Part shown: one piece after another, positions 2 to 39,453 of the stretch
Layout of the letters: each line of letters begins with the position of its first letter
Numbering within the stretch: position 1 is the stretch's first letter
Assembly: GCA_009784775.1 (NCBI GenBank)
Contig: WQXQ01000001.1
Coordinates: forward strand, 5,355 to 69,354
Length of the DNA stretch: 64,000 nt
Reading direction: 5' to 3'
DNA from: Treponema sp.
GTDB taxonomy: Bacteria > Spirochaetota > Spirochaetia > Treponematales > Breznakiellaceae
Translations under genes and position numbers: made by a program
The notes under the pieces: model-generated
Seen by the model: only the letters and a program-made list of their open reading frames with translations
The model's database searches: none
What the model was told of the DNA's origin: nothing

Positions 2-1420
2 AACAGCACGCGTATCTCACGGAATGTTGCGCTTATACGTGAAAAAACAAAAAACTTTGTGGAAATTCTGTATCCATTGGAAAATGAAACTATACAGGGC
101 ATCTTTAACTTGTATGGTTACGCCGGCGGCGCAGACAAAGCCGCAACCGTAATAATAAAGATAAACGGCGCTGATCAACTGATGAGAAAGGTTGATGACT
201 CTGGATTTTTCCGCATCTCATTGAATGCCAGTCATTTGAATTCGGGCAAAAATACAATAAGTGTGTACAGTCATTTTGGCGGATCTGACGAAATTGAGTC
301 GAATACACAAACCATCTTTTACAACGCCGAAGGTCCATGGATTACCATCGACAGCATGAATGTCGGCGATTTTGTTTTTGACAGACCTTATCTTTACGGA
401 CGGATGGGGTATAACCTGACTGCAGAAGAGCAGCAAATTCTTGCCGACAAAAAAGCCGACAAAAAGCAACGCGCCCTTATTCGGGCGAAAACGGCAAGCT
501 ATGCGGAAATCAGTTTTGACAACGGAAAAACTTTTGTTAAAGCCGGCAGAGGCAGAGACAAGGAAACAATGGATTACCGTTACCGGCTGGAAACCGGCGA
601 TATGGCCGAAGGAATGCACTATATCCTTGTTAAAGCAACAATGAAAAACGGCGAGATCGCCACAACACGGATGCTGGTTCAGGTAGACAAAACCCCGCCT
701 GTAATCCGGCTTATAACTCCGGAAGTAAGCGGCCGATACAACAAGAAAGTACCCTATTCCGCGTTTGCGTCCGATGACATTGAACTTGTCAGCCTGGAGT
801 ACCATTTACGCAAGGGTGACAAAGCGGCTTATGGAGTACCCGGCTTTATTCAGGGATTGTATATTGAAGGAATTATTCCGCCGTTTATAAAACAGATATC
901 CAACGATGCGCCGGTAATGCCTTTTGGAGGAGGGGCGACTTACACAGACTTTGGTCTTGGTCTAAGTTTCTTTGACGACAACGTAAAGATACAGGCCCAA
1001 TACGGATTTTTGACGCAGAATATATGGGAATCCATGGGCGGAACAGGCGCGGTACGTTACGGCGGTCATGTGCTGGGATTGAAACTGCTTGCAAGCATTT
1101 ATACCCTGCCGTTTGGTTCATTTGCCGGCCCCGACTGGGAATGGCTGTCGGCATCCCTTGCGTTAGGCGCAAACTTCTCCTTTTTTGATATTGGCAATAA
1201 TGGTTACACACAAAGCGGTAAATCAACCTGGATGAGCGCGCTTTTGGCCCAGGTAGAATTCCCCAAGGTAACCATTCCAAAAAGGACATTCCTGAGAACA
1301 TTCAGTTTGTTTACCGAAGGCCAGCTTTGGTTTGTACCAACTGACGTAAATGCGGATAACTATAAAATTGAAACCGTTATTCCGCATATAACCGTGGGAT
1401 TAAGAGCCTACATTTTCTAA
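2..1420 (+). CDS. 5'-truncated large envelope protein: Ig-like repeats followed by a predicted C-terminal outer-membrane beta-barrel
   Basis: Frame is open from base 2 (NSTRISRNVAL...), so the gene starts upstream of the window. Ig-like segments (DKTPPVIRLITP...SDDIELVSLEY) precede amphipathic strands ending in aromatic ITVGLRAYIF. Confidence 0.7.
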   Translation, partial: NSTRISRNVALIREKTKNFVEILYPLENETIQGIFNLYGYAGGADKAATVIIKINGADQLMRKVDDSGFFRISLNASHLNSGKNTISVYSHFGGSDEIESNTQTIFYNAEGPWITIDSMNVGDFVFDRPYLYGRMGYNLTAEEQQILADKKADKKQRALIRAKTASYAEISFDNGKTFVKAGRGRDKETMDYRYRLETGDMAEGMHYILVKATMKNGEIATTRMLVQVDKTPPVIRLITPEVSGRYNKKVPYSAFASDDIELVSLEYHLRKGDKAAYGVPGFIQGLYIEGIIPPFIKQISNDAPVMPFGGGATYTDFGLGLSFFDDNVKIQAQYGFLTQNIWESMGGTGAVRYGGHVLGLKLLASIYTLPFGSFAGPDWEWLSASLALGANFSFFDIGNNGYTQSGKSTWMSALLAQVEFPKVTIPKRTFLRTFSLFTEGQLWFVPTDVNADNYKIETVIPHITVGLRAYIF

Positions 1421-1440
1421 CCATGAGGTTGGAGGTATTT

Positions 1441-4400
1441 ATGTTTGATGCAAGAAAAAAATCATCATTCGCGAAATTGAATGCAATCTGCCTGGCGGTA
1501 TTGCCTGCATTAGCCGGATTTATCTTTACTGCATGTAATGTGCCTATGGGTATGGGCAAGCCCGTAGACACAACCCCCCCGGTAATTTCCATTCTCAGTC
1601 CGCGGGACAACGATTTTGTGCGCGGCGTAACCCAGGGCGAGCCTATACGACTGGCAGGTGTCACTTACGATGATTTTGGAATAAGTCATTTGACCGTAAG
1701 ACTGATAAATGTCGCAACAGGAGAAGAGTTTACTCCGGGTATCAATGATTTTTCATATACCATTGAAGATGACGGCGTATGGAAAGCTGCATTACACCTT
1801 CCCGGAGAAGGCGTAACCGAGTACCGTATCAGGGTAATAGCGGTAGACTTTTTCAAAAACGAAGGCGCGGATGAAGTAACCGTCAGGGTCGACATAGTTG
1901 CGCCCTGGATAAGTAAAGCCGTGGTTATACGTCATTCAATATTTGAAAAAGAACTGAAAAACCTCGATTTTTTTGAACAAGAGCTTAACTTCCGCTCTGA
2001 CAGCGGAAACACAGGGATACAGTTTAATGACATTGACTATTTCCAGAACGAAGCGTTTAACATTAAGCTCGAAATTGGTTCCAGTTTTGACAATGTTGCG
2101 GCTTCACGGCTTGATGTATACAGCGAAGATCACGTTAAGCTGAACCCCGAACCGCTGGTACCGCTTCCAAACCAGCCGATGTATAACCCGGAATGGAGAA
2201 TAACGCATGACCAGATGATAGAATGGGATGCAAGATACGAATGGGGAGCGCATTATATCTATTTTGTTGCCATGGCATGGAATACCACTTCCTGAGACCC
2301 AACTGCCAATGAAGGCAAGGGCGGCACCAGTTACGGGGAATTTCCCCGCGAACAGTTAGTCCACGGCATATGCTGGTATCCGGAATCGGATTATCCCCAC
2401 ATAAATGTAAATGCGAATATTTCGAGCGGTTTTATTTCGCTGCTGCCGGATAATGATCTTGCCATTGAATTTTACGATGATGACAAAATATCAGAAATTT
2501 ACGCGGCAATAATCCCGAAAGAAACTATGGATACATTACGCGGCAGTTTGTCTGAAGCCGCTTATATAGAACTGCTTGGAAATGATCACCTTAAACGGGA
2601 AGAAATTATTAATACTTTGGCTCTTGACCCTCTGTTTGTTCCTTCAGGCAGCCCGGACGAACGAAGCCAGATGGTTCATTTAAGAACCAGTGGTATTCCG
2701 GGTGAATATCGCCTTATTGCAATGGTGCAGGATTCAAAAAGCGGCGATAACCTTGATATATGTAATCCCCCGTTGTGGACCGTACATCCTCCGCTGAGAA
2801 TTCAGGTTCAGGATCCCAATGATCCCATTATCATGATAGAAAATCCCATTACGGAAAATATTTTCCCGGTATTAACCGAAGGCAAAAAATTCTCAATATC
2901 GGGCTTTACTATTGACCTTAATCCAAGCGGAATCGAAGCAATACAGATTGCCTGGATTCCTGCCGCTTCCGGCCTTGAGTTTGATGATGCAAAAAACGCT
3001 CTTGTATCTGCAAAAGATGAGCCGATCGGCAATTTCCCCATAATACAGAGCAACGAAATAAAGGTTTGGCGGCCGCAAAGAGGCGACAACATTTTGGTTA
3101 CGCTTAACAATGTCGACTATATGCGCAATGATTTCAGCCAGGAATTCCACATAGCCGATGATTTTATCTACAATGGCAGGACCGAAAACGCCAATAAACT
3201 TTTTATCATCCATGCCTATAAAGGCGACAGAGATATATTCAAAACATTCAGGCTTACCGCAAACAGCGGCAGGCCGGTCATTGAAGTGATTTTCCCCTAT
3301 CGTGACATGATGGTTCATGATACCAATCAGGATTTAAACCTGATCATGAGGGTAAGCAGCGTTATCGATCTGGATGAAAGCAGCATAAAAATCAGTGATA
3401 AAACGACCGGTAACACGAATGAAGCGCGAGGGTTCTCTAGCGATGTCGTTTTCGAAAACGGCGAATATAAAAGGACTATTACATCACAGGCTTTTGCCGA
3501 AAACGATATTAGAGAAGGAGCGCGCCTTACCTACCGATTTGAAGCGGCTGATTTAACCGGCAACTCTCAAATAGTGGAACGAAACGTCATTATGTCAAAT
3601 CGTCCGGCAGTGGTTTATGTAACTTCTTCCAACGCGCCGGGCAACTATGGCATTAACAGAGAACTGCTTTTTGAAGTGGTATTCTCGCTGCCGGTAAGAG
3701 TAGACAAACAAGGCGGAACAGGACCTCGATTGAAACTGTACTTCAACGATCCTGGCACCGGCGAACCTGCAGCGGATGCATACGCGGATTATGTGGATAG
3801 TCCCGCGGGAAATACGATTGTATTTACCTATAGAGTAAGAGAAGGAGACGATTCTCCAAAACTCTACACTTCCTATCGCCCCATAGAACTCAATGGTTCA
3901 ACAATAGTAACCACTGAAGCAGACGGCGGAGACGCAATAATAGAATTTGGCGGGCCGGGCAGCGGCTTACAAGACAGGGTTGCAATAATGGTGGACGGCA
4001 TTCGTCCCAAAATTACAAAAGCCGGCTTTAGCCTCCCCAACAACGGCGCGGGTGAATTTTATTATAACATTGGAAAAACCGTAACGCTGGAATTGTACAC
4101 TTCGGAACAGGTGCGTATTTCCGGCACCCCAATGGCCAGAATTGGCTACAACACAAGTACCGGACTGCAAATAGTGAATGCTTCTTTTTCAAAGGTTGAC
4201 CATAACGAGGCAGGCGGTGAAACCAGCAGCACGCTGTTCTTTACCTGGATGATTGATGATGATGATGTTCCGGAAACGCAATTGAGCTGGACAAGTCCCT
4301 GGTTTGTGTTTGGCGCATCCGATTCCATCACCGATATGGCAGGGAATGGAATTGATATTCGTACAAGCACCATGGATCTGCTTACGCCTGATGATCTTAA

Positions 4401-7221
4401 CGGCGCCAATATCAACAAAACAGCGTATATAATAACGCGGCCTCCTGCTCCCCCGGTATTTACTCTCTATAGGAGTCTAACCTTTAATGGGGAAAACATA
4501 CTTGCAGGTGATACGGTCGCTGTCAATTCTGAAATTTACATGACGATGGACAGAAACGGCGAGGCAAACACCACCATCATGTATTATTCTCTTGAAGCGG
4601 GAAACAATGGGCAAGTGATAAACACAGGCAGCCATCGGTCTATTGAGGATAAAAATGCAGCGCATAAAAACAGTATTTTATATATTCCTTCGGAGTATAT
4701 AATTACCGGCTGGCAGATTGACAGGGCAGGTAACCGTTCAAACAATGCGGCAGAGAGAAGCGTCATTATTAATTCCCGCGCACCGGAATTGGTTGACATA
4801 ACCTGTACCGATCCGGACGGCGAATATACTGCCGGAAGAACCCTCAGTTTCAGGCTGGTTTTTTCACGGAAAGTTATCGCGGAAAATACCGGCGCAACAC
4901 TCACTCTTGAGGGAACCGTTGGAGGATATGCCGATTCGATGACTATTCCTCTGACAGTGGCAAGCGAACCTGTCGCCGATACCGCTCTGGTTTTTTCGCA
5001 AGAGATTCCGGAAAATATGCGGATGAAAGACATTAAGGCAACAAGGATCGTTCTTACCGGTGTGAAAGACGCCGAGTATGGAAATGATCTTAAAGAATAT
5101 ACCAGTACCATCAGCGAAGAAGACAATGTTCGGCGGCCGCTGCCAACCACCGCACCCAACCTTAATCGTCCCGGATTGATTATAGATTCAATAGGACCAA
5201 GGATTGAGCAATATAACCCAGGTACATCTACCGGCACTGCTCTTGGCACAGGCCAGTATTCCAATGGCGGCGTTATGCAAAACGTAACCATTTCGAGTGA
5301 CGGCCTGATTAGAAATGCCAGGATTACCCTTACATTTGACAAAGATGTATGGGCGCAATCGGGCGGAACCATTACCATAAAGCCGTGGGGAGATTGGGCA
5401 ATTCCTCCCATCCTGACGGTCGAAGAAATGGACGCGCTGTATCATTCACCGCTATTTGGCGATAACAAAATTGAGTATCAGCGAATATTAAAATGGATAG
5501 ACGCCAATGGAATTCCGGAAAGGTTTGACTCAAATCTGACCACTGCCTTTGGGTTACGCACAAGGTACAATTCCTATATAAATACTACCCACGGCCTCAG
5601 ACAAAATAGTGGTGGCGTTGGTACAGCGCGTCCTGATACGAGGCCAAAATGGGTGCTGGCTTTTGACAGGGACCTGTACGACAATATGGAGTATTTGCGG
5701 GATGTCTTTAACGCCGCAGAATGGAAATGGCAGACCATTTCCGCTGCCTCAGGATCAGTGCAGATAAACCCGGCTGATCGCAGAGAAGTAACTATTACCC
5801 TGCCCGAACCCCTGCAAAAGGGACGTATATGGGAAGTTACCATAAGTGATGGCGCTTTCAGGGATCGGGCGGGGAACCCCTCGCAACCTATTGTGGAAAG
5901 CACCAGAACGGGCCTGCATTATCGCTTCTGGTCACCTGGCACTGCCGATCCGGTCATTCGGGTTGACCGTTATTCTCATGGTGATAATTACCATGGGCTG
6001 CCCGCTTCGTACAGGGGCGACTGGAGTACAATACCCTATATTGATACCAAGGTGCGTATTGATTGCGAAACACCGGGCGCTACCATTCACTATGATACGA
6101 TTAGAACAAAGTATACATTGGCGCCGGATGGAAGCACAGCCAATACCAGCAACGCGTTTACCACGACTGTCAATACAGCAACTGGTTTCTTTAATCATGA
6201 TAATTTTCCCTTTGGTTCCGGTTATACCAACAATACTATCGGCGATGCCCGAGCTTTAGCAGATAATTATTTGAGAAACCTGTTGATACCTATGAACGAT
6301 GAAACAAACAACGCAATAATTCCGGTCACTGCACAAAATGGCGCTATCTTATGGACAGATTTAACCACTAAAGGTAATGGGCTTGTCAATGACACTACTT
6401 TAACGACTAACGGCCGTGTGTACATCACGATAAGCTCAAATGGAACTGCATCATTAACGGCCGGAACTCCGGTGTTCGAGGTCATTACTCTTACAGCTCC
6501 TGAAACAGCCAGAGGGCGTTTCTTCTATGTCGGTGATGCGTACCGGGTAAATAATGATAATGGCACAGAAAACGACCGTAATGCCGGCACCAATACCAAT
6601 GCGGCGCTTTTCACCGGCCGGCGTGATTATGTCACTGCGGCAGCAAGGAAAAATGCAGTAACCACCGGAACAATTGCGGGACCCGACCTTGATGTGTCAT
6701 TCCCGTCTTACGAAGGCGTATTTAAAACCACAGTGCTTCACCGCGAACCCGCAAACGGAGCATACTGGCTTTTGATTCAGGGTTTTGATACGCCTGTTAC
6801 CCCCAGTACTCCGGGTTTTCCGTTACAGGAATATGTAGCCACTCCACCATCTCCTTACAACAAACTGGAACACACCTACTTCAGCAAACAGGCTTATCGC
6901 ACAGGCGCGCTGCCAAGCAGTGATCCCGCGGGCATTTGGCCTGATGCTACTAATGTGAGTAATAATGTCCTGCGATATGGTACTAATACTCCTGGTGTAC
7001 CTTTACCGCCCCGTGTTGATAATCATATTTGGGTAACCTGGGATATTGTTTCGGACTGGTACATGAAAGGCAGAAACAGGGGTGTAAATTTTGAATCTAG
7101 TGACACAGAACCCGGTGGTAATATTCAGTATCACCGGCTTCAAAGGGGCGATGCAAACTATGGCGCTGTTCTGGCAACCTATGGCGCGGTTATCTACCGT
7201 TACCGGCAGGATTTCCATTAA
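1441..7221 (+). pseudogene. Giant Ig-repeat lipoprotein (~1926 codons) interrupted by one in-frame TGA at 2293-2295 (nonsense allele, sequence error or readthrough)
   Basis: GGAGGT RBS at 1431-1436, ATG at 1441, lipobox FIFTA-C. ORFs 1423..2295 and 2527..7221 share a frame and 2296-2526 has no stop (DPTANEGKGG...IPKET-M). The sequence is colinear with the paralogue at 7258. Confidence 0.7.
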
Positions 7222-7257
7222 TAATTCTGCCATCGGCAATAAACAAGGAGACAAAGC

Positions 7258-10200
7258 ATGAAAACCGGAAAACTGTATATTAAACTTTTTGCTGTATCCG
7301 CATTGGTTTTTCTTACTCCATTACTGTTAACCTGTGAAACACCAATCGGACTTGGTTCAAAAATCAGCATAACGGGACCGATTCTTTCAATTACAGGCCC
7401 TACTCCGGTAAGCGGCCAAAAAGATGTACAGGTAGGCAGTTTTTTTACGTTAGAAGGTTTCAGCACGGGTGATACTGCCGCAACGCGCCTGGAAATACAG
7501 ATGACGTATTTTGACAGTATAACAAGTACATTGGTACCGCTGGGACGGGAATGGCGTTATGACCGTTTCTGGCAGTGGAAAAAAGACAGTGATGTTGCCT
7601 GGCAGCGTTATACGGAAAATGATTATAAGGACTCTGGGTTACCAGCGCCTTCATGGGTAGTTTCAGGCCATAATGTTACATGGAGCCTGCCGATAGCGCT
7701 TAACGGACTTCCAAAAGGGGACTACTTTTTTACGATCAGGGCATGGAACGCCACCGGAAATTCGGACGCAAATTCCGTGCAAAAATTAAAGGCGGTCCAC
7801 GATAACGAAAATCCCGAACTTAAAATAACAAACCTGAACGTATTACGTTTTGGCACAGGCTTTTTCACGCCTGAACCGCCCGAAGAATTCGATACCTATG
7901 TCTATGAGCCCATACATAATTGGGGAGCCACTGCTACCTATATTTCCAACTGGATAAACAATACACTGGAATTTGGATGGAATATTGATAAGCCAATAAT
8001 CGGCAATTACAGCCTGATGATTGAAATTACCAATAGACATAATTTGTATACCAATGCCGGCAAGGTTCTGTATTACCGGTATGAATGGAATGGCGCAGGA
8101 GTTTTACCTCGTTATGGTATGTTTACCGACAGGGCAAATCCTCCTGCAGGTTATACCAAAGTCGGCAATGCCATACCTGTCTCCGAACTTGTACCGCGTG
8201 ATCTTGTTACCGGACAGCCAACAGGAGCAACGCATCCTGAAAACACGTATGTTCCCATGCAGATAGTTGTCTGGTTAAAGGATGGCAACGGGAATGAAGA
8301 CAATGTACATAGCAAAGGGTGGTTTGCATACTGGCCCAAGACAGATGAACCTTGGGTACATATAGCTTTTGGTTACAAGGAAGATCCCAATAGAGAAACT
8401 CCCCTTAATGCGCCAAATCTGGCTTTTATCTGGAGCGGCACAACTAATGACAGAAGTATCGCGTATGACAATACCGGACTTGATTCACTGTCATGGAAAC
8501 TCTACAAGCTGCCTGAAAACAGCCTTGAGCCAGTAAATGATGGTGTGCCCGGATCCAAAGGTTCAAGAAATAATCCATGGGAAGGAGAGGTGGGATTTCC
8601 GGACAATGGAAGAGAGAAACACTGGGACTTTGAGGCAAAATCCGAATTTGGTACCGGATTTTTCAAAATCATAGTGACCGTAAAAGACATTCCTCATGGG
8701 AAACAAGGCGTATACACCGCCTATTTTTCCATTGAGTCCAATGCAACTCCCACCATCAAGAACCGGGAACTATTATCTCCTTCCATGACCGATGCTCTTT
8801 TGGGTGATGATGACCGGGGAAATTTCCTGATAAAGGGCATAGCCCAAATAGAGGACAGCGACACTATCGGCGTCAACGCTGCCAGCGTAGAGCGAGTCAC
8901 TATAGTATGGATTAATCCACAAAACCAAAACAGAGCGATGGAAAGTATACTGGAATACAGTGACCGGAATTATGGAAACTGGCGCAAGGTTTTGGAAGAA
9001 CCGCTCACAAATGGTTATTGGCAGGATCCAAACGGCAACCGTATATGGGAAGTAGCAGCCATTGACTGGGTTGCGAGTACTGATGGTAATAATAACGGCA
9101 ACGATCAGGAAGATTACTATTTTGAGAAACAGCTTAATATTTTTACCGATCTTGACATTGCTCCGGGAAAGAATCCGTCCGGATCGCAAACCTTCCTTAT
9201 CCGCGTACAAAGTAATGAGGTGGGAGGTAAATCATTAGCCTCGGTTGAAAGGTTTACCCCACAGGGAGACAGTTCCGATCCTGTACTCACGATAGATGAA
9301 ATTGTGGTTTATAAGCACAACAGCAGTACCGGAAATTATGAGGAAAAAATATACTCGAGCATATCCGAAGATGATTTCGAAATGATTTCCACGATAAACA
9401 GAAATGACAAAATGAAGATAAAGGGAAGCTGGAATGATAATTCCCGTGAAAAATGGAGCGGCCTTGCCCCTGCGGTCTTAAAAAGTTATTTCAATGATTT
9501 TTCGATCACATGGAACGGTGAACAAATCAACATTGACATGGAAACTTTACCGGGCAGCTATTTCGATGTAAACGGAAAATGGGAAACTGGTGAGTATGTG
9601 TTTACAGACGGAAATACAGACCCTATTGTTTTTCTAAGCGCCAGCATTACCGATCATAACAATAACCGCGGAAGCAAAGACATAACCCTGTTTTTGGAAA
9701 CTGACAATCCAACCATGATCCGTATTTCCAGTATTACCGGCGATGGAGAATACGGAGAAAACAAGGATACGAACCCAAATGTGTTTGGCATACAGAACTA
9801 CATTGATATTTTCCTTGAGTTCAACAAACACGTACAATTCTTTGAAAACAGAGGGGCGCATCCTTACTATCCTCCCAATCCATTAAAAGTCCCTTATCTG
9901 GAATTGAATAATGGCGGACGCGCCTTTTATTTTGCTGAAAATGGCGACACCAGAATCATATTCAGGTACTTTATAAACGGCATACCGGATCCCGAATTCT
10001 TGCCTACCGCAGTAAGCGGTTATGGCGGAGACTCGTCAAATGGCAGACTCAATGTAGATAGAATTGTCTTTTCTGATGAATATCCGCAAACAAGTCTGGT
10101 AAGCGTTGACGGCGGCACAGCGGTCATTATTCCCGTAAACGCTGTATTTAACCCAAGCAGTTTGCTTTCTCTTGCGGGCGGAAAAAATCTGGTTATTGAT

Positions 10201-13200
10201 AAAGTCCCGCCAGTGATAGAAACAATTGTTACCACCGCCGGGAGCCTCATACCCCACGGCGATGGCAGCCGCATTTACATCATGGTTAATTTCAACAAGA
10301 CTGTTGTCATTCCTTCCGCCGCAAATGCGGAAAATTTTTATCTTAACCTAAAAGGCGGAAACCTTACAGAAAAAGGCGCAAAGGCCATATTTGACAATGT
10401 TGCGGGAGCCGCAAGCATTACCTTCCGGTATGATGTGGAAGAAGGGCATGACACCAGTGAATACGGAGAATATTTAAGCATAGATTCTATTACTATAGAC
10501 GAGTTTAATATTACGGATATAGCATGGAACACTTTTGATCTTGACGCTGCCAATAATTCCCTCCCGAACGAAGGAAGATTGAACACTAATCTTACCATTG
10601 ACACTGTTGCTCCGCAGATTCCATCGATTACAGGTATAACAGCCAACAGAAGTTATTATGAGAATACAAGTTTCAATATTACCGGACTTGAAAGCAGGAA
10701 TGTAACTGTAGAATATTGCCTTGATTATGATCCTTCTAATCCGGAAAACGCAATATGGGTTACGGTACAACAGTCAATATACCCCATCCAGGGTAATACA
10801 ACAAACCATTATTACATCAACAATATTCCCCTGACCATTAATGGAACATACCATATTGCGGCCCGGCAGCGGGATAATGCGACAAAACCAAATGTATCCG
10901 AAAATCCGGAAGTTGCAAATGTCGTAGAATCGGTAATCGTTGACAAGGGGCCGCTGCTCACAAGGCTTGGTTCAAGCACGCCGGACGGCATCTATGGAGA
11001 TGGTGATACTATTGATATAGACCTTATATTCCGCATACCGGTATATCTGCCCGAACAGACTATTTCCGGTTCAACTGCATCTCTTACCATGCGCAATATG
11101 AGTTCCGGCAGTCCCATTCCCACAGCTGCGCTTAAGAGCATTTCCCCGGATAATAAAACATACACTTTCAGCTTTACAGTCAACGGCCACAGCACCGATC
11201 GTCTTGATGTTGCCAGTCTTGTCATGGGCAACTTGCAATTTTATGACGGCCCCAACACAAGTAACATACTTGTAAATCAATGGATAAATATTGCCAATGT
11301 GCCGGCAGACGCATATGGCTACAGACTTCCAAAATCCATCGAAATTATGTCGGGAACCCCTGAAAGAACAGTGATAGCGGTTAACGATGATGAAATACGC
11401 ATAACATTTAACCGTGATATTTACCGGGGCGATACGCGGGAAAAATTATTAATTAAACAAATTGCCACAGGCTACCGTATCCCGGTTGTCTTAACAGAAG
11501 AACGCTGGGCGGAGCTTTTCATTGGCCGCTCAGATATTACTGGTTTTACCGATGTACAATGGCGGGGTATTGGAAATCAGCTTTACCAGCGGGGGACAAA
11601 CGGAGCCAGTGTGGGAACGGGCAATACCCTTGTATCTGACACTACCATAAAATATGTGCTTAACTATAGTATTGATACAAGTGACAATGGTATGGGTCAT
11701 ATATCGGGTATAACACCTGCACTTACATACCAAACTTTAAGGGACAGCCTCAGAACCGCAGAAGCATTGAGTTTTTACGCTCTGGACAAGGAAGTTGAAA
11801 TTGAAAACATTACGGTAGATGGACAATTAAGACCAAGGCTGCTGAAGGTTTCACTTGCCAACTTTGATGATCTGATGATAAAGGGGGCGACTTACCAATG
11901 GGCTGTACCCAATGGTTTTGTCAAGGACTTCCTGGAAACTCCCAATGGCGGAAGCATTTCCGGTTATGATTCAACGATGACTTCAGGCGATCCTGAAAAT
12001 GCCGCCCATAACAACAATGTACATAGACTTCCCGTTTCCGGCATTGAGGAACCAGTTATCAGAATTAACAAAGGGCAGATTGAGCAAATTATTCCTGTTG
12101 GCGGTCAACGCCAGGCACACCAACCATTAAGATCAGAAGTCAAGATAGATTGCCGGACTCCGGGCAGTGTTATGCGATACAGGACGCGGCAAACTACCGA
12201 TAGTGTAGGACGCTTAATTATGCGTAATATTAACCTTACTATGTCTGCTAATTACAATTATTGGAATTGGGATACTCTCAGGCATCCAAACATACCTTTT
12301 CTTCTTCCGCATCTGGGAACTCAACAGCAAAATCAAGGGGGGATAGATTCTTTTGAAAGAACCAAAAGACGCCCTCAAAGCGGTAATATCTCCGCACCAT
12401 TAGTTTCCGGAACATATGCAAACGATGAAATGAACTATTGGGTACCTATGGGCAATTGGCCCGAATGGATAAATCTGGCTCCCAATTACACCGCTCCCTT
12501 TACGATTGGCACTGGCAGCTACAATGACGGAGGCATGGAAATTCACATTCATGCGCAATCCAGAAGAGCTGATGCAGGAAACTGGGAAGACGTCGTGTAC
12601 GCTTATGAAGCGGCCTACCGTTCGGTATTTGCATTTAATAATACAAATCTCAACAATAATAACTGTAATAGAAATATAGCTTCCGGATCTGGCGCAGCCA
12701 CTGTTCTTCCCGGTAATCCCCCTACATTTACTGAAAATACCTCTGCATCATATAGCGGCAATCCAGATATTGCAATTCGTGCCCGTATGTATATAAGAGG
12801 CGGCGATTCCACCAGTGGAGAACCTTCCATACCCGATTTCCCCATAGCGCGTGACCGGTCGCTGTCTAGAAAAGCCCGTCTTATGACACCTCTTAGTATT
12901 CCCGGCAATAGCGCCTTGGGTAATTCAGCCAACGGTTACAGCAATTTTATAGACAATTCATTTATCCCCGCCAGCTATCAGTCTCACGGTCATTATCTGT
13001 GGGTTTGGGTTACATGGGGCGTGAATGTATACGCATATATTGATTTCTTTTCGGGACTGATGCACCAAACAGAATCCTACCATACAGAAACCAAGGATTT
13101 CTACGGTGCATTTATACCCAGCAAGGAACATTATCCGGTAATACCGGGAAGGACCACGGTGGTTGAAACCAGAGGCGCCTATAACCTCCAGGCCGATGGC

Positions 13201-13263
13201 GGTCATGCTCCGTTCCCATACCTTGGTCCGCCAGTGCTAAGTCCTGCGCCTACGGACAGGTAG
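7258..13263 (+). CDS. Giant (2001 aa) Ig-repeat surface lipoprotein, paralogue of the upstream gene
   Basis: AAGGAG RBS, lipobox LLLT-C then ETPIGLG. Three DGxYG...F.Y.V..G Ig-like repeats, D..AP..P motifs, and a C-terminal VKIDCRTPGS module shared with the upstream protein. Confidence 0.8.
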   Translation: MKTGKLYIKLFAVSALVFLTPLLLTCETPIGLGSKISITGPILSITGPTPVSGQKDVQVGSFFTLEGFSTGDTAATRLEIQMTYFDSITSTLVPLGREWRYDRFWQWKKDSDVAWQRYTENDYKDSGLPAPSWVVSGHNVTWSLPIALNGLPKGDYFFTIRAWNATGNSDANSVQKLKAVHDNENPELKITNLNVLRFGTGFFTPEPPEEFDTYVYEPIHNWGATATYISNWINNTLEFGWNIDKPIIGNYSLMIEITNRHNLYTNAGKVLYYRYEWNGAGVLPRYGMFTDRANPPAGYTKVGNAIPVSELVPRDLVTGQPTGATHPENTYVPMQIVVWLKDGNGNEDNVHSKGWFAYWPKTDEPWVHIAFGYKEDPNRETPLNAPNLAFIWSGTTNDRSIAYDNTGLDSLSWKLYKLPENSLEPVNDGVPGSKGSRNNPWEGEVGFPDNGREKHWDFEAKSEFGTGFFKIIVTVKDIPHGKQGVYTAYFSIESNATPTIKNRELLSPSMTDALLGDDDRGNFLIKGIAQIEDSDTIGVNAASVERVTIVWINPQNQNRAMESILEYSDRNYGNWRKVLEEPLTNGYWQDPNGNRIWEVAAIDWVASTDGNNNGNDQEDYYFEKQLNIFTDLDIAPGKNPSGSQTFLIRVQSNEVGGKSLASVERFTPQGDSSDPVLTIDEIVVYKHNSSTGNYEEKIYSSISEDDFEMISTINRNDKMKIKGSWNDNSREKWSGLAPAVLKSYFNDFSITWNGEQINIDMETLPGSYFDVNGKWETGEYVFTDGNTDPIVFLSASITDHNNNRGSKDITLFLETDNPTMIRISSITGDGEYGENKDTNPNVFGIQNYIDIFLEFNKHVQFFENRGAHPYYPPNPLKVPYLELNNGGRAFYFAENGDTRIIFRYFINGIPDPEFLPTAVSGYGGDSSNGRLNVDRIVFSDEYPQTSLVSVDGGTAVIIPVNAVFNPSSLLSLAGGKNLVIDKVPPVIETIVTTAGSLIPHGDGSRIYIMVNFNKTVVIPSAANAENFYLNLKGGNLTEKGAKAIFDNVAGAASITFRYDVEEGHDTSEYGEYLSIDSITIDEFNITDIAWNTFDLDAANNSLPNEGRLNTNLTIDTVAPQIPSITGITANRSYYENTSFNITGLESRNVTVEYCLDYDPSNPENAIWVTVQQSIYPIQGNTTNHYYINNIPLTINGTYHIAARQRDNATKPNVSENPEVANVVESVIVDKGPLLTRLGSSTPDGIYGDGDTIDIDLIFRIPVYLPEQTISGSTASLTMRNMSSGSPIPTAALKSISPDNKTYTFSFTVNGHSTDRLDVASLVMGNLQFYDGPNTSNILVNQWINIANVPADAYGYRLPKSIEIMSGTPERTVIAVNDDEIRITFNRDIYRGDTREKLLIKQIATGYRIPVVLTEERWAELFIGRSDITGFTDVQWRGIGNQLYQRGTNGASVGTGNTLVSDTTIKYVLNYSIDTSDNGMGHISGITPALTYQTLRDSLRTAEALSFYALDKEVEIENITVDGQLRPRLLKVSLANFDDLMIKGATYQWAVPNGFVKDFLETPNGGSISGYDSTMTSGDPENAAHNNNVHRLPVSGIEEPVIRINKGQIEQIIPVGGQRQAHQPLRSEVKIDCRTPGSVMRYRTRQTTDSVGRLIMRNINLTMSANYNYWNWDTLRHPNIPFLLPHLGTQQQNQGGIDSFERTKRRPQSGNISAPLVSGTYANDEMNYWVPMGNWPEWINLAPNYTAPFTIGTGSYNDGGMEIHIHAQSRRADAGNWEDVVYAYEAAYRSVFAFNNTNLNNNNCNRNIASGSGAATVLPGNPPTFTENTSASYSGNPDIAIRARMYIRGGDSTSGEPSIPDFPIARDRSLSRKARLMTPLSIPGNSALGNSANGYSNFIDNSFIPASYQSHGHYLWVWVTWGVNVYAYIDFFSGLMHQTESYHTETKDFYGAFIPSKEHYPVIPGRTTVVETRGAYNLQADGGHAPFPYLGPPVLSPAPTDR

Positions 13264-13269
13264 TGAGTG

Positions 13270-13292
13270 CGAGGGGTACTTTGTACCCCTCG
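13270..13292. terminator. Hairpin between convergent genes, probable bidirectional terminator
   Basis: Perfect 10-bp stem CGAGGGGTAC-TTT-GTACCCCTCG between stops at 13263 (+) and 13299 (-). No long U tract. Confidence 0.6.
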
Positions 13293-13298
13293 TGACTT

Positions 13299-13652
13299 CT
13301 ACACATGAACCCCAATGGCTTCGCGAATGGAGTCTACCAGGTTTTTCCTGTCGGGGAGTTTTCCCATAATGCCAGGGATTTCAACTATTAACGGATAACA
13401 ACCGGAGAGCTGCCAATTGATCAGGTATTCATCCAGCCAGTTGGCGGCTTCTTCGGTTACAATCAGTACACGACAGCCTTGACCGTTAGGCAGCGAATCA
13501 GGTAAAGCGATACCAGCCTCTTCGACCCAGCCTTCGGTGATGCGCCTGAACACTGCGGCAGCTTCTTCCGCGTCATATACGGCCGTTCCTTCAATGCCGA
13601 TAAAACGGAAGGCTGTTACCAGCTCCGGGTCACCGATAATGTAATAATCCAA
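13299..13652 (-). CDS. atpF: V/A-type ATP synthase subunit F
   Basis: YYIIGDPELVTAFRFIGIEG...LIVEIPG...IREAIGV, the subunit F signature. TTG start, in the operon position after K. Symbol follows V/A-type nomenclature. Confidence 0.85.
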   Translation of the reverse strand: MDYYIIGDPELVTAFRFIGIEGTAVYDAEEAAAVFRRITEGWVEEAGIALPDSLPNGQGCRVLIVTEEAANWLDEYLINWQLSGCYPLIVEIPGIMGKLPDRKNLVDSIREAIGVHV

Positions 13653-13662
13653 TTGAGAGAGC

Positions 13663-13983
13663 CTACAGAATCAGTATCAACAGAGCAACAAGAAATCCCC
13701 AAAGACAGATTCCTTCAGCCAGACCGACATAGGGCAGCGCTTTTCCCGAAAGCTCCGGGTTTTCGCTCATTGCGCCCATTGCCGCAGCGCCGATACGCCC
13801 AACCGCAATGCCGCCGCCAACGCAGGAAGCTCCCACCGCAATAGCTGCGGCAAGATACCGCCACATTGCAGGCGCACCATTGCCGGATGCATCGGCGTTT
13901 TCCGCGCCTGCAATTTCCTGGGCAAATGCTGCAACACCCAAAATCAGAAACATTGCAATAACCATTAGCACTCTTCGTTTCAT
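13663..13983 (-). CDS. atpK: V/A-type ATP synthase proteolipid subunit K/c (single hairpin with N-terminal signal-like extension)
   Basis: GGGIAVGRIGAAAMGAMSENPE...GLAEGICLWG, with the carrier Glu in helix 2. Confidence 0.9.
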   Translation of the reverse strand: MKRRVLMVIAMFLILGVAAFAQEIAGAENADASGNGAPAMWRYLAAAIAVGASCVGGGIAVGRIGAAAMGAMSENPELSGKALPYVGLAEGICLWGFLVALLILIL

Positions 13984-13993
13984 AAAAAACTCC

Positions 13994-16015
13994 TTACTTG
14001 TTAAAACGGAACGGCGAAAACGCTACCCCGGTACTCGTGAAAAATTTACCAAAAAATTCATAATATTGCAGGCGCATCACCTGAATGGCAACAATCAGTC
14101 CTTCCAGCAGAATGATAACCAAGTTTCCAAAAACCAATACAAGCAATGCCGAAACAGAACCTGCCACAGTGCCGGTATTGGCCAGGTCCTCGGTAAAACG
14201 GAACACCACAAAAGCCAGTATAGCATGAGACAGGGCAAAGGCTCCAACACGAAGGAAACTGGCAGTGTTCGAAAAATAATTCGATGCGGTTTCCATCATT
14301 TCAACAATGCCTTCCATTATGAATGCCATAAGACCATGTTCCAGTATGGGCTGCGTACGGGTAATACAGCGCCAGATAACCGGACCGAAAAAAATACAGA
14401 GCAGCGGGATACACAAACCGGCAATATCAAAGAACTCAAAGGTGACACCACGCCCCCCAAAAATACAACGCAGGCCAATACATATCGCATACCAGAAAAA
14501 CAAAAGGCCAGCCAAACCCGTCTTGGTAAAAAATGCCTCCCTATACTTTTTCAGTATACAACAATTGACAATATTAATAAGCAGTCCCAGTGAATTAATG
14601 ATAATCCCTATGCCTATGGTAAAACCAAAAAAATAAAAAAGCTTTGTTATACTGCCGCCCTTTTCCGCCAAAGGCAAAATCGTCAAAATCCTGTCCATGG
14701 GCTGACCGGTAAGAGCGGCGGTAATTGCCCTTGTAGGGGCGATTAACAAGTGTTCACTGGTAAACATTTCGCCGGTAAGAAAACCCATAACCATTGAGGC
14801 AATACCCACGGTAACCAATGGAATGGAAAATTTACTGAATCGGGCAAGCTGCTTCAGGCCGTGTTTGCCGGCAAGCAGTCCCAGCAGCAACAGTACAAAA
14901 CCCTGGCCCAGATCACCAAACATAATCCCAAAAAGCAATGTATAAAAAAAAGCGACCAGCGGCGTTGGATCAATGGCCCCGTATGGCGGCGCGCCGTAGG
15001 ATAACACCATACCTTCAAAGCCTTTTACAAAAGCGCCATGTTTCAGGGAGACAGGTACTTTTTCGCTGCCATTACGCACTTCGGGAATTTCATTGGGATT
15101 AAAAACACGGATAGCCGTTCTGCCGCCGGTCATGCTTGCAGTATCTGCGGCAAGCTGCGAAATCATATCGGCGGGAACCCAGCCGGAAAACAGGTAAATG
15201 CTGGAAGTGCTGGTAAGCTGCGATTTAAGCCGCTCAACGGCAAGAACCATAAACAACAATGATGCCAATTTTTGCAGGGCTGCCTGAAGCTCATCCCGCA
15301 TCTGTATTTTTTCGCCATTAATTTTTACAAAATCACGATCAACGCCATCAAGCCGCCGCTGGAGTCCTTCAAGCAATTCAGAAGGCACACCCTGATACGC
15401 TTCGGGAATTGCTATTATGGTAAATCCGCATTTTTTTAATTCGGTATCCAGGGCAAAACGGCCTTTCCGGGAACTTGCCGCCAAAACCCGATCATCTCCC
15501 AAAGGGACAATTACCGCGCGATTGACAAGCCGTTCTTTCAGTTCAGGGAGTTCCGCCGGATCAAGATGCCCAACCCGCAAGGTCAAATATGACAAATGAT
15601 CCAAATCCGAAAAAGGCGCATTCAAGTTGGCGAATGCGCGCGCTTCATTATAGGCTTCTTCGATATGCTGCCGTTCCTGCCGGACAGCCAGTTCCCTTGC
15701 CTTAAGTACATCAATCGCAGCGCACAGCTTTTCCGCCAGAGCTTTAGCCCGGGATTCAGTCTGGTCCTCAGCCGTTTCTCCACACAGGGTACTGTCCGCC
15801 GCCGGTTCGGTTGGCAGCTCTATTTCCAGAAATTCAGCGCAAGCGTGCAATCTGTCCAGCAGTGTTTTTATCCGCGCAGAACCATCGCTTTCCGTATTAT
15901 CCTCAGCATGGCTAAAGTGCATTGCTCCATTGCGGCCAAGGTATTCGATCACATTATCAATATCGCTTTTGAGCACTGTCATTTGCACACGTTTCATCTT
16001 GCGGGGGTAAATCAT
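13994..16015 (-). CDS. atpI: V/A-type ATP synthase subunit I (a)
   Basis: MIYPRKMKRVQ start, DPTP...FGIMFGDLGQG, SFLRVGAFALSH, RLQYYEFFGKF. Confidence 0.93.
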   Translation of the reverse strand: MIYPRKMKRVQMTVLKSDIDNVIEYLGRNGAMHFSHAEDNTESDGSARIKTLLDRLHACAEFLEIELPTEPAADSTLCGETAEDQTESRAKALAEKLCAAIDVLKARELAVRQERQHIEEAYNEARAFANLNAPFSDLDHLSYLTLRVGHLDPAELPELKERLVNRAVIVPLGDDRVLAASSRKGRFALDTELKKCGFTIIAIPEAYQGVPSELLEGLQRRLDGVDRDFVKINGEKIQMRDELQAALQKLASLLFMVLAVERLKSQLTSTSSIYLFSGWVPADMISQLAADTASMTGGRTAIRVFNPNEIPEVRNGSEKVPVSLKHGAFVKGFEGMVLSYGAPPYGAIDPTPLVAFFYTLLFGIMFGDLGQGFVLLLLGLLAGKHGLKQLARFSKFSIPLVTVGIASMVMGFLTGEMFTSEHLLIAPTRAITAALTGQPMDRILTILPLAEKGGSITKLFYFFGFTIGIGIIINSLGLLINIVNCCILKKYREAFFTKTGLAGLLFFWYAICIGLRCIFGGRGVTFEFFDIAGLCIPLLCIFFGPVIWRCITRTQPILEHGLMAFIMEGIVEMMETASNYFSNTASFLRVGAFALSHAILAFVVFRFTEDLANTGTVAGSVSALLVLVFGNLVIILLEGLIVAIQVMRLQYYEFFGKFFTSTGVAFSPFRFNK

Positions 16016-17040
16016 GACGTCACCTCAAGCATTGCAAATACGTCTTTGCCGCTCATCCCAAGTGCCAAACCTTCCGCAATGCTAATCAGCAGATCTTCCT
16101 CATAGTGTTTGAGTTTGATATAGCAAAAAATGGAACTAACCGAAAAAGGCATGAACCGGAAACAGCGCCGGGACAAACGGTAAATATACCGCGAAGCGGC
16201 ATTTTGAAAATAGCGGGGATCAACGGTCCACTGCTCCCCCGCTTTTTGTGGATTGAGCAATTTTTCCCATCGCCAGCCATTCCAGGCCGGCCGGGAATCC
16301 AGCGGAAACCGCAGGGATTTACGCGCTTCTGCAGCAAGGGAAACTGCTTCGTCGTGCTGGTTTTGGCCGAACATTTTCAGATCCATGAGATACCTTGCCG
16401 TCTCATCTTGATCTTTTTTGAAATAGGTACGCAGCCGCAATGCCCAAACACAGTTACGCAGGGAAATTTCTTCAGCAAGAATGCGCTGGGCATAGAGACG
16501 ATCGGCGGCGGGAAGACCGCAGATACTTTCGGTCAGCAGTGTATAGTACTGTCGATCCAGCGCTGCTTCGATAGCAGTAAGATCGGCGGGTTTAGGGTCT
16601 TTGGGAAACTGCGTAAGAATAAAGGCAAACTCGGTGCCGGCAAGCATTGCGGCAAGATTGGGATATTTGGAAAAACGCACAGTGCTGAAACGGCCAATGT
16701 CATTAAACGCGGGCGGAGCCGTTTTTTTACCGGCGGCAATATGGTGCAAACAGGTTTTGAGGCCGGCATATTCGCAGGAACGAAGCTGCAGAACAAGCGC
16801 CTGCGGCGGAATGGAATACGAATTAAGTATAACACGTATATGCCGGACAGTCCGCTGCAGAATCCTTTGTTCAAGATTGGCTAACAGCTCCTTAACCGGC
16901 AGCTCCCTAACTGCTGCGGGAAAAACAAGCCGGTCCAACTCCTGCAATGAACTCATCTTTTCCAGTGCAGCGATTCGCTTTCCGATAAAAGACTTGCCAA
17001 TAATACCGCATGCTTTGGCATAGGCAAAGTCCGGCGTCAC
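16012..17040 (-). CDS. atpC: V/A-type ATP synthase subunit C (V0D/AC39 family)
   Basis: FAYAKACGIIGKSF start, EEISLRNCVWALR, YIKLKHYEEDLL. ATGA overlaps with both neighbours. Confidence 0.8.
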   Translation of the reverse strand: MTPDFAYAKACGIIGKSFIGKRIAALEKMSSLQELDRLVFPAAVRELPVKELLANLEQRILQRTVRHIRVILNSYSIPPQALVLQLRSCEYAGLKTCLHHIAAGKKTAPPAFNDIGRFSTVRFSKYPNLAAMLAGTEFAFILTQFPKDPKPADLTAIEAALDRQYYTLLTESICGLPAADRLYAQRILAEEISLRNCVWALRLRTYFKKDQDETARYLMDLKMFGQNQHDEAVSLAAEARKSLRFPLDSRPAWNGWRWEKLLNPQKAGEQWTVDPRYFQNAASRYIYRLSRRCFRFMPFSVSSIFCYIKLKHYEEDLLISIAEGLALGMSGKDVFAMLEVTS

Positions 17041-37036: not shown

Positions 37037-37108
37037 AATCCAATGTAGAATTCGGCTTTTAACTTGTTTTTGATACCTCCGTGCACTATCTTTTATAATA
37101 GGTACAAT

Positions 37109-39451
37109 ATGCGCAAAAAATCCGGCGGAGTATTATTCGCCCTCCTGATAGGTCTCGTCTTTTACTCTTGTTCCGATATTTCTCTGCCCCAACGAGTGGA
37201 AATACAGGGAAGTTTCGACCCAATGATAAAAATAGGGGCAAGCAATTGGGGCATTATAGCGGCTCAGGCTTTTAGAGAAGCCTTTTTTGGAGAAAGAACC
37301 GAAGATGCGTCCGCAGGTTCGGGATCTTTGCTGGGAGGTCTTGAAACCATAGACTTTGGCGGAGATGTATACAATGTGTATTATGGATTACAGCAAATAG
37401 AACAGGCGTTTTGTTTTTATATCCATACTGAAATGACCTATCCTCTTGATGTTGATGAGTATTTGGAAATAGTCGGTGAGGCGCTGGCGAAAATTGGTTA
37501 TGAGGATCTCCAAATCAATTATACCATTAATACAGCGCCCTGGCAAAAAATTACTTTGCACGCCATACCCGTTCCTGTTCCTGTCGCCTTTGGTACTCCT
37601 GTTCCTTTGTCCGGTTCTGTCTCACTAACTATGGGCGCTAATTTTCTGCATACGGAAATTGGGGAAGGCGCTCTTACCATAAACCTGTATCGCGGGGGCG
37701 TTATCGTCGATAATATTGATATAATACCCAATATCACCATTACGCAAGCCGACATTCCTTCCTATCCCGGCTTGTTTTTGACTGCGACAAATGCTTCGAC
37801 ACATTTAAATGGTCAACACATAAACACCAATCCTGTACAACTGGGCGGTTCAATAAGTCTGGAACCAAAACCCGGCGCGGTCATCAGTCCCGAAACACTG
37901 GAGATGAGAATAGAAATAAGTCTTACTCTTCTGGAACGATTGCATTGGAGATTTGACGGCAGTATTAGAGATGAACTTAACCCCGAAGTGTATCCCATTT
38001 CCCTTAAACACATGGCTCCCTATGTAGAATATATTGATTTTGATGAAAAAGAAGAAGGTGACGAAACAATTGACGCAGGCATAGGGATATATTTTCATTT
38101 TGATGAAATGGTGAGCGGACTTGAACTGGCCATAAGTTGTAATACCCTGAATATCTTTCCGAAAGATGATCATGAAGTATTTGCAGATGCAGAATTTAAG
38201 CCGTTGGTAAGCAATATGCCTATCGTCTTCAGCAGTGCGGCAAACCATGCTCTTGAGCCTGGTGATACATCTTTTGATAAAGATTTTTATCGTCTGGATA
38301 TGCCGGATGGAGAAATTAAAGAGCAGTTTATAAATGAAGAAATACAATTTGAATTCAGGATGGAATTACGTCCCGCAGGCGGCGGCGATGTGTTGACTCT
38401 TGAAAATATAAGAACTGATATACCGCCCAAAATAATGGGAGAAGCGAGGTTTTTTCAGAATTGGAGAAGAGCGCTCATAAACATGAATAATGCCGTAAAA
38501 GCCGCGACTTCTGATGATGAGGTAATAATTGGCAAAAAAAATAGAATTCCCAATACCGAAGAAGGAATAGAAGATCCTATAGACCTATCCCTAATGGATA
38601 AATATATAACCGGCTTCACTTTTGAAAATATAAAAGGAAAACTGTATCTGCACGGCCCGAATAAAACCATTGCAGACATAAATGCGGAAATTTCCTTTTT
38701 TGCGTATTACAATGAGGAACAAACAAAAATAAAATTGTGCGAGGAAAGATCGCCGTTAGTGCTGGATAATATAGGCATAGCCATAGATGATTATCTCAGT
38801 TCAAGCGGAGCTTATGCCAGTCAGGCGCTGCCGGATAAGGCAAGGGGAACAGAATTTGAGTTAACCAGTGAGTTTAATGAAATATTTTTCCATATGCCTG
38901 AAGATTTATTTTTTGAATATATAATCGATATGCCGGAATTCCTGCCTGTATATCCGCATATGTTTACCGATGGACCGGGCAGCGATAAAACCCCTGCCGG
39001 AAGTAAAATTGTCGCGACTATTATGATATATCTGCCTATGGTATTGGTTGCAGTAGAAGACAATGCCAGAGTTATGTACCCGGATATGTTCGGCGAAAAT
39101 GCAAAAGACCTGTTCGGCAGGGAATCGGAAAATGAGAACCTTATTCCCGCTTCGCTGGATCTGGAGTATATGCGATTTTCTGTCGATTTTGCCACTGCCA
39201 TGTTTGCAGGCGGAAAATTGTTCCTTGAAAAAAATACGCCAATATTATTTGATCCTTTGGGTATTCCGGTGAACGGCAGAACGATAACGCTTGATCTATC
39301 CCGTAATCAATTTGATGTAATAAAAGATAATTTAATAGAACCAGATTTCTATGTGGAATTTAACGAAGGCTCAAAAATAACTATCCCCAGAAATCTGGGA
39401 GTAACCAGTGTCGGGTTTACAGTCAAAGGCAAATACGAGCTGGAGTTGTAG
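37109..39451 (+). CDS. Uncharacterised acidic beta-rich lipoprotein (780 aa)
   Basis: ATG 37109 gives MRKKSGGVLFALLIGLVFYS-C (lipobox). The TTG start at 37064 is not needed. Confidence 0.7.
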   Translation: MRKKSGGVLFALLIGLVFYSCSDISLPQRVEIQGSFDPMIKIGASNWGIIAAQAFREAFFGERTEDASAGSGSLLGGLETIDFGGDVYNVYYGLQQIEQAFCFYIHTEMTYPLDVDEYLEIVGEALAKIGYEDLQINYTINTAPWQKITLHAIPVPVPVAFGTPVPLSGSVSLTMGANFLHTEIGEGALTINLYRGGVIVDNIDIIPNITITQADIPSYPGLFLTATNASTHLNGQHINTNPVQLGGSISLEPKPGAVISPETLEMRIEISLTLLERLHWRFDGSIRDELNPEVYPISLKHMAPYVEYIDFDEKEEGDETIDAGIGIYFHFDEMVSGLELAISCNTLNIFPKDDHEVFADAEFKPLVSNMPIVFSSAANHALEPGDTSFDKDFYRLDMPDGEIKEQFINEEIQFEFRMELRPAGGGDVLTLENIRTDIPPKIMGEARFFQNWRRALINMNNAVKAATSDDEVIIGKKNRIPNTEEGIEDPIDLSLMDKYITGFTFENIKGKLYLHGPNKTIADINAEISFFAYYNEEQTKIKLCEERSPLVLDNIGIAIDDYLSSSGAYASQALPDKARGTEFELTSEFNEIFFHMPEDLFFEYIIDMPEFLPVYPHMFTDGPGSDKTPAGSKIVATIMIYLPMVLVAVEDNARVMYPDMFGENAKDLFGRESENENLIPASLDLEYMRFSVDFATAMFAGGKLFLEKNTPILFDPLGIPVNGRTITLDLSRNQFDVIKDNLIEPDFYVEFNEGSKITIPRNLGVTSVGFTVKGKYELEL

Positions 39452-39453
39452 CA

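Follow-up and report, generated by a model that had tools for sequence, protein, structure and literature searches.

At the start of a 64,000-nucleotide stretch of a Treponema sp. genome lie three genes which, in the reading that we favour but hold only tentatively, form a conserved treponemal envelope module and encode one outer-membrane-anchored complex with a beta-barrel as its anchor or dock. The stretch, hereafter the window, is contig C1:5355-69354 of assembly GCA_009784775.1 (WQXQ01000001.1); the genome comprises 2.4 Mb in 153 contigs with 48% G+C, and its closest protein relatives are termite-gut Treponema metagenome-assembled genomes (MAGs). Gene 1 encodes an immunoglobulin (Ig)-like protein ending in a probable small barrel, and genes 2 and 3 encode putative giant lipoproteins that carry a common tag directly after the lipidated cysteine. 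A preliminary description, made from the letters of the window alone, had seen here three co-directional and tightly spaced genes. Indeed, the frames 2..1420, 1423..7221 and 7258..13263, all on the plus strand and spanning positions 2-13263, are separated by gaps of only 2 nt and 36 nt; should gene 2 begin at ATG 1441, where a GGAGG stands 7 nt before the codon, the first gap widens to 20 nt. Among envelope proteins that combine a barrel with an Ig array, the system is a variant not yet characterised.

Linkage of gene 1 to tagged giant lipoproteins

The same order of gene 1, a gene 2-type gene and a gene 3-type gene recurs in other Treponema MAGs, at about 12 loci as judged by hidden Markov models (HMMs), just as expected from the preliminary description. 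We surveyed one genome per species and obtained 80 loci with a gene-1 homologue, 74 of which had at least 600 nt of downstream sequence. At 43 of these 74 loci the gene-1 homologue is followed directly by a giant tagged lipoprotein gene, with two such genes at 15 loci. Giants were defined as lipoproteins of at least 1,000 aa or running off the locus; the complete ones measure 1,600 to >3,300 aa.

At each of the 43 loci the lipidated cysteine is followed by a tag of the form C-x(1-7)-G-[LMF]-G-x-x-[VI]-D-x3-P. It reads C-NVPMGMGKPVDTTPP in gene 2 (1534..1581, plus strand; A3 profile, C1:6879-7181, E 3.1e-18) and C-ETPIGLGSKISITGP in gene 3 (7333..7380, plus strand; C1:12681-12983, E 3.0e-15). 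The 43 loci include those of T. putidum, T. socranskii and Treponema sp. HNW, and the same gene-1/giant pair occupies corresponding loci of two T. denticola strains; databases annotate the oral-species pair as 'Ig-like domain-containing protein / neuraminidase' plus 'hypothetical protein'. In T. denticola the pair comprises a 1,556-aa protein and an adjacent lipoprotein of 2,131-2,146 aa. Neither the gene 2 nor the gene 3 HMM still recognises the giants of T. denticola and the other species just named, in which only the tag and the first domain persist.

Four proteins bear the tag in the present genome, and three of them adjoin gene-1-family genes, namely gene 2, gene 3 and a giant encoded at C3:40743-51881 (minus strand; 3,675 aa, ALAC-EQPFKSGLGPIVDTRPP). 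By contrast, the tag is absent from ten other lipoproteins of at least 1,500 aa in this genome. Of the 49 tag-bearing N-termini counted in the 41 relatives, 26 fall into a cluster that includes a gene-1-family gene, where we would expect less than 2% by chance (our estimate rather than a calculation).

The giant at C3:40743-51881 belongs to a second locus (C3:32949-51881), in which it is followed by a 352-aa gene and then by two tandem gene-1 paralogues of 1,040 and 1,221 aa; these are 36% identical over the C-terminal region and end in ...RISLF and ...RVNFF. The fourth tagged protein (C53:9210-16808, plus strand; at least 2,533 aa, running off the contig; SC-QNPFSNNLGSKVDVEPP) is unlinked to a gene-1-family gene, and its neighbour is a 508-aa gene whose N-terminus looks to us like that of glycerol kinase. 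In the relative G007, seven tagged giants surround a gene-1 orthologue (C8:8377-53934), five of them upstream (1,968-2,834 aa) and two downstream, an array that suggests local expansion of the cargo family.

Gene 1 and its C-terminal module

Of gene 1, the window contains no more than the final 472 codons and the stop (2..1420, plus strand). The full gene, C1:2428-6774, begins 2,927 nt before the window; its 1,448-aa product (P0073) opens with a Sec signal peptide (…ALWA|AG) and continues with about a dozen Ig-like domains. The Ig-like repeats that the preliminary description had read in the visible part were borne out by an hmmscan of the full protein, which returned Big_7 with E 4.7e-49 over seven scored stretches, Big_13 with 4.3e-17, and Big_3_3. 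With the last 549 aa as query, gene 1 has more than 936 homologues; identity is 56-68% among the 120 matches listed, and nearly all full-length homologues among these measure 1,600-1,800 aa. Gene 1 itself, at 1,448 aa, is some 200 aa shorter than nearly all of its orthologues (about 1,630-1,700 aa). Because the family consensus has about two further domains between ...KGI.VPG... and ...GP.I....P.G.WVQ..., the shorter protein looks like the outcome of an in-frame deletion of two domains.

Whole-genome searches with the C-terminal 472 aa of gene 1 gave matches in 26 of the 41 relatives and in 36 of 201 genomes drawn from the whole phylum, with full-length matches in several Treponematales families and in some sister families. 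Among the genomes sampled there was no match in a 1.1-Mb single-contig genome, nor in four 1.0-1.5-Mb genomes (6-10 contigs) of one genus in another family of the same class. In databases, homologues of gene 1 are labelled 'BNR domain protein' or 'neuraminidase'. These labels, which we reject, are explained by a sub-threshold BNR/Asp-box match in gene 1 (E 3e-4; 20.8 bits, cut-off 27), and no sialidase domain is present. We found no publication on the gene-1 family or its T. denticola orthologues; T-Mac/TDE0362 (PMC11833123) is an unrelated 647-aa protein.

An AlphaFold2 model of the last 472 residues (P0001), built from a 37-sequence alignment, places Ig domains in the N-terminal part of the piece. 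They are followed by a segment at 692..853 (plus strand; residues 231-284) that coincides with the stretch where the family's invariant residues cluster most densely (residues 229-294, invariant columns D229…P294) and has low AlphaFold confidence, with a predicted local distance difference test score (pLDDT) below 50 over residues 231-281. We regard this pre-barrel segment as a candidate docking or plug segment. The remainder, 854..1417 (plus strand; residues 285-472, ~190 aa), is modelled as eight strands of 6-16 residues each within residues 285-470, at pLDDT about 80-90, with short helices confined to loops. The five C-terminal strands, of 12-16 residues, are longer than every Ig-domain strand in the same model, and in most strands of the module a hydrophobic face alternates with a face rich in Gly, Ser, Thr and Gln. 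The protein ends in ...GLRAYIF, in which the terminal F, the G at -7 and the R at -5 are invariant in 28 sequences; a C-terminal beta-signal, which ends in Phe or Trp, is present.

The barrel-like C-terminus ending in Phe that was noted in the preliminary description is thus recovered by prediction, and the module is probably a small, 8-stranded outer-membrane beta-barrel. It is the sequence and secondary-structure features that fit a barrel, whereas a fold match does not confirm it. Pfam returned neither a family nor an outer-membrane protein match for the module alone, a search of Protein Data Bank (PDB) sequences with the gene 1 piece found nothing, and Foldseek with the whole model matched only Ig and fibronectin type III (FnIII) arrays (SiiE, MpIBP, Bap).

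A barrel-only profile searched against 1.84 billion representatives matched 253 clusters, confined to Spirochaetota. In all 150 matches listed the match ends at the C-terminus or at most ~15 residues from it, and the proteins among these are mostly 1,200-2,600 aa long; shorter ones are probably fragments. In alignment A4 the first loop of the termite-clade barrels contains an insertion of 22 residues (IIPPFIKQISNDAPVMPFGGG), and in their partners a four-residue spacer separates Cys from G-x-G. Where the insertion is missing, most barrels go with a partner spacing of two residues (C-x-x-GLG), a pattern that phylogeny may confound.

The giant lipoproteins

Gene 2 (1423..7221, plus strand) has 1,932 codons with a probable start at ATG 1441 and one in-frame TGA, which is considered below. 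Gene 3 (7258..13263, plus strand) encodes an intact putative lipoprotein of 2,001 aa (P0002). Both products are classed as lipoproteins on the strength of their lipoboxes, ...GFIFTAC|NVPMGMG in gene 2 and ...PLLLTC|ETPIGLG in gene 3, each preceded by a basic n-region and a hydrophobic core; the lipobox Cys is invariant in 31 aligned partners. The motif C-x-x-P-x-G-[ML]-G reported in the preliminary description is therefore present in both giants. So are its three Ig-type repeats (DG.Y...F.Y.V..G) per protein, which we judged by eye and from segments aligned between genes 2 and 3 by BLASTP, a strict regular expression having failed.

Searches with gene 2 found 41 homologues and those with gene 3 found 30, nearly all of 1,850-2,100 aa, from Treponema MAGs and annotated as hypothetical; conservation is even along both families. 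Neither protein reached the cut-off of any Pfam or NCBIfam family, the weak Pfam matches to Big_7 and Big_5 lying below it, and neither had relatives in the PDB. The two giants had been called paralogous, which holds in a qualified form. Direct BLASTP similarity is weak but collinear (E 6e-4 to 2e-5, with 24-27% identity over short stretches). However, since the family HMMs of genes 2 and 3 cross-match both in the central repeats and in the first half of the C-terminal region, the two are distant paralogues whose relationship is clear only at the profile level.

The C-terminal 662 aa of gene 3 (11275..13260, plus strand) are confidently predicted to form one compact, mainly beta body (pLDDT 79.6, predicted template modelling score 0.81). 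This module has no neighbour among PDB structures, the best TM score being 0.17 from partial FnIII matches to insulin-receptor ectodomains. As the preliminary description had stated, no enzymatic motif could be recognised: Pfam, NCBIfam, PDB-sequence and Foldseek searches returned no enzyme family and gave no support to an enzyme function.

These results bear on the idea that the proteins serve nutrient acquisition in the termite gut, whether by binding glycans or as unrecognised enzymes with plant or host polymers as substrates. Domains of the CHB_HEX_C type and Y_Y_Y domains do occur in distant gene 2 relatives (P0067, P0071), and the stretch ...KVRIDCETPGATIHYDT resembles, to our eye and with no match from any tool, that type of accessory domain. 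Against this stand the lack of any catalytic or carbohydrate-binding module family in Pfam or NCBIfam, the gene 3 C-terminal module without a PDB neighbour, and the occurrence of orthologous pairs in oral Treponema that do not degrade fibre. We consider a nutritional role improbable.

A proposed outer-membrane complex and its alternatives

In the reading that we favour, the gene 1 product would be exported by Sec, fixed in the outer membrane by its ~8-stranded C-terminal beta-barrel, and would bear a stalk of ~12 Ig domains. The products of genes 2 and 3 would be giant all-beta lipoproteins held by their N-terminal lipid, with the tag right after the cysteine and an Ig domain behind it. Tag and first domain may dock onto the gene-1 protein, for which its ultra-conserved, unmodelled pre-barrel segment would be the likeliest site. 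In this way a single conserved anchor could gather rapidly evolving lipoprotein fibres, one or more of them, into a coat on the surface or a layer of adhesive fibres. The data show how the genes are built, which domains they encode, that their order is conserved, that the tag is specific and that enzyme folds are lacking; from these we infer outer-membrane insertion, physical contact, surface exposure and function of the three products, whether as adhesins, an S-layer or otherwise. A constant anchor with variable cargo fits the divergence of the three families, because gene 1 is far more conserved (56-68% identity to homologues) than genes 2 and 3 (34-57%).

The preliminary description had left open whether the barrel is an anchor or an export channel. 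To our knowledge, protein-conducting barrels all have 12 to 16 or more strands. With only ~190 residues and eight predicted strands, too few for a protein-conducting pore, the gene 1 module is unlikely to be an export barrel, and we therefore prefer to speak of an anchor or dock. A bolder proposal, which we ourselves find doubtful, is that the 8-strand module and the invariant pre-barrel segment constitute a dedicated, spirochaete-specific outer-membrane dock that recognises C-x(1-7)-G-L-G-x-x-V-D-x3-P and accepts interchangeable cargoes. External fibre or arcade structures have reportedly been seen by cryo-electron tomography on termite-gut Treponema, and such a dock, if real, could underlie them.

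Several observations weigh against a single complex. In genome G013, at 94% completeness, genes 2 and 3 are present and gene 1 is missing. About 28 gene-1 homologues are followed by unrelated genes, and about half of the tagged giants lie elsewhere, complete T. denticola-like genomes having extra ones 30-55 kb away. The relatives checked do not show the pairing found at C3; their counterparts of the giant are on other contigs. The barrel fold lacks a structural match, Foldseek matches of the whole model being swamped by Ig domains. Finally, in an 8-stranded barrel both termini normally face the periplasm, so that the Ig stalk would start on the inner side. The co-occurrence of the three genes anticipated in the preliminary description thus stands as a frequent association, with a giant after gene 1 at 43 of 74 loci, and not as a rule: the gene-1/giant link is not obligate.

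Such partial linkage (43/74 loci, 26/49 tagged N-termini, and G013 lacking gene 1) would also be expected if there were no apparatus at all. Gene 1 would then encode an Ig outer-membrane protein and genes 2 and 3 self-standing lipoprotein adhesins or binding fibres, brought together by co-regulation or by accumulation of surface genes, and the tag would be the shared start of an Ig domain. Indeed, the first domain of gene 2 (positions 38-150 of its HMM) is homologous to Ig domains of gene 1, so that common ancestry could account for some of the likeness, and an array of seven giants as in G007 is typical of expanding surface-protein islands. On the other hand, adjacency is kept in Treponema of the termite gut, the mouth and the rumen even as the giants diverge beyond HMM recognition, the tag is restricted within the genome to this class of giants, and the genes are only 2-36 nt apart. 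Independent envelope proteins are, in our judgement, a somewhat unlikely explanation.

A further alternative keeps the complex but turns it around, so that the Ig stalk hangs into the periplasm and the giants lie subsurface, together serving as a scaffold or spacer within the envelope. Even-stranded barrels have both N- and C-termini in the periplasm, which agrees with this arrangement, and eight strands offer no obvious export route for a 1,250-aa N-terminal passenger. The gene 1 stalk is strongly conserved throughout, unlike typical exposed antigens, and genes 2 and 3 are evenly conserved with no hypervariable head. Most lipoproteins of T. pallidum are likewise subsurface. However, gene 1 evolves far more slowly than genes 2 and 3, 12-20 domains placed end to end would exceed the normal width of the periplasm, and similar Ig arrays elsewhere are surface fibres, as with the Foldseek neighbours SiiE, MpIBP and Bap. 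As to the membrane face of stalk and giants, then, topology rules favour the periplasm, whereas the surface is favoured by how quickly the giants diverge and by an Ig architecture like that of adhesins. On balance we regard the periplasmic arrangement as unlikely.

Outer-membrane proteins of Treponema are few and hard to identify, and they are sought for vaccines and for envelope biology. The present work defines an uncurated family of barrel-anchored Ig-array proteins, wide in Treponematales and weaker elsewhere in Spirochaetota, together with a class of giant lipoproteins that is marked by an anchor-proximal tag and preferentially encoded beside gene-1-family genes. T. denticola is genetically tractable, and its orthologous pairs open the anchor-cargo relation to direct testing. 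If confirmed, our favoured reading of one anchored complex would represent a new solution to holding very large lipoproteins at a diderm envelope.

Comparison with known systems

The preliminary description likened the locus to intimin or two-partner systems. The analogy holds in its logic, but we found no membership in either family. Like the inverse autotransporters (type Ve: intimin, invasin), gene 1 joins a beta-barrel, here a probable one, of the outer membrane to a long bacterial Ig-like array. In those proteins, however, an N-terminal 12-stranded barrel is preceded by LysM and threaded by a C-terminal Ig passenger, whereas the module described here is C-terminal and has ~190 aa and eight predicted strands. 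Its C-terminal position, and an hmmscan of full gene 1 that gave Ig-type families only, argue against an inverse autotransporter (IAT_beta, PF11924). Two-partner secretion was likewise rejected, as no Omp85, POTRA or TPS family was detected in the three proteins.

Classical autotransporters (type Va) share with gene 1 a Sec signal, an N-terminal passenger of extracellular type and a C-terminal module with an aromatic end, a barrel in the autotransporters and probably one in gene 1. Their barrel, however, comprises ~270 aa and 12 strands with an alpha-helical plug, while the module predicted here is too small to pass a chain; gene 1 does not match PF03797, and AlphaFold2 shows eight strands in ~190 aa. 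In predicted strand number, amphipathic strands and terminal Phe, the module resembles the small 8-stranded barrels of the OmpA N-domain, OmpX, OmpW and the T. pallidum TP0126/TP0733 class. It has, however, no Pfam match to these families and, among the matches listed, it is fused C-terminally to Ig arrays, mostly in proteins of 1,200-2,600 aa.

The giants recall Leptospira LigA and LigB, which are also spirochaetal, lipid-anchored and composed of long Ig-like arrays. There is no detectable homology, the domain types differ (Big_2, PF02368, was not detected in gene 2 or gene 3, so that neither was classed as Lig-like), and genes 2 and 3 add a large non-Ig C-terminal body and the tag. We know of no barrel gene adjoining the Lig genes. 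A barrel partnered with a lipoprotein whose anchor-proximal segment matters is known from Slam and TbpB in Neisseria and from RcsF, which is threaded through OmpA/C/F in Escherichia coli. The DUF560 barrel of Slam, however, has 14 strands and comes with TPR repeats, RcsF is a small sensor, neither is related in sequence to our proteins, and the putative barrel protein of the present system carries a 1,250-aa Ig stalk of its own.

An in-frame stop in gene 2

The preliminary description took gene 2 for a lipoprotein of ~1930 aa. The lipobox and a frame of 1,932 codons agree with this; the frame, however, is broken by a TGA at 2293..2295 (plus strand). Under translation table 11, gene 2 splits into open reading frames of 290 aa and 1564/1641 aa. 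The column of the TGA is occupied by Trp in 33 of 33 full-length homologues in the alignment, so that a single TGG>TGA change at an invariant Trp codon accounts for the interruption. The homologues are intact, at 1,844-2,228 aa. Recoding of TGA as Trp was ruled out, because TGA is an ordinary stop in this genome: it terminates 310 of 1,106 long open reading frames, and it separates 18 of 121 same-frame split pairs, with no excess of TGA-split frames.

The present copy of gene 2 is thus a recent pseudogene, a leaky nonsense allele, a population artefact or an assembly error. Because the 1,641 codons beyond the TGA are intact, the lesion must be recent, artefactual or tolerated by read-through; low-level read-through of UGA by near-cognate tRNA-Trp would restore the ancestral Trp. 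In this genome, gene 2 may therefore be inactivated or strongly down-tuned through TGG>TGA.

Boundaries of the block and neighbouring genes

A hairpin that had been described as closing the block is indeed strong (13260..13302, no strand; dG -27.9 kcal/mol, z -3.5), but it has no T-run and failed an intrinsic-terminator scan. It lies between convergent operons, as the three-gene block is met downstream by a V-type ATPase operon on the minus strand. Subunits F, I and C/AC39 occupy window positions 13299-17040 (minus strand), and beyond them lies a P-type cation ATPase at 18322-21024. Further into the window, positions 37064-40857 (plus strand) encode a pair of proteins of 795 and 467 aa, for which Pfam returned no family at E 1e-5.

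Upstream of gene 1 and divergent from it, C1:1624-2345 (minus strand) contains a 145-aa PIN-domain-like open reading frame that overlaps one of 118 aa; the pair is probably a VapBC-type toxin-antitoxin. Around C1:1400-1500 there is a (CA/GT)n microsatellite, which translates to THTHTHTH.

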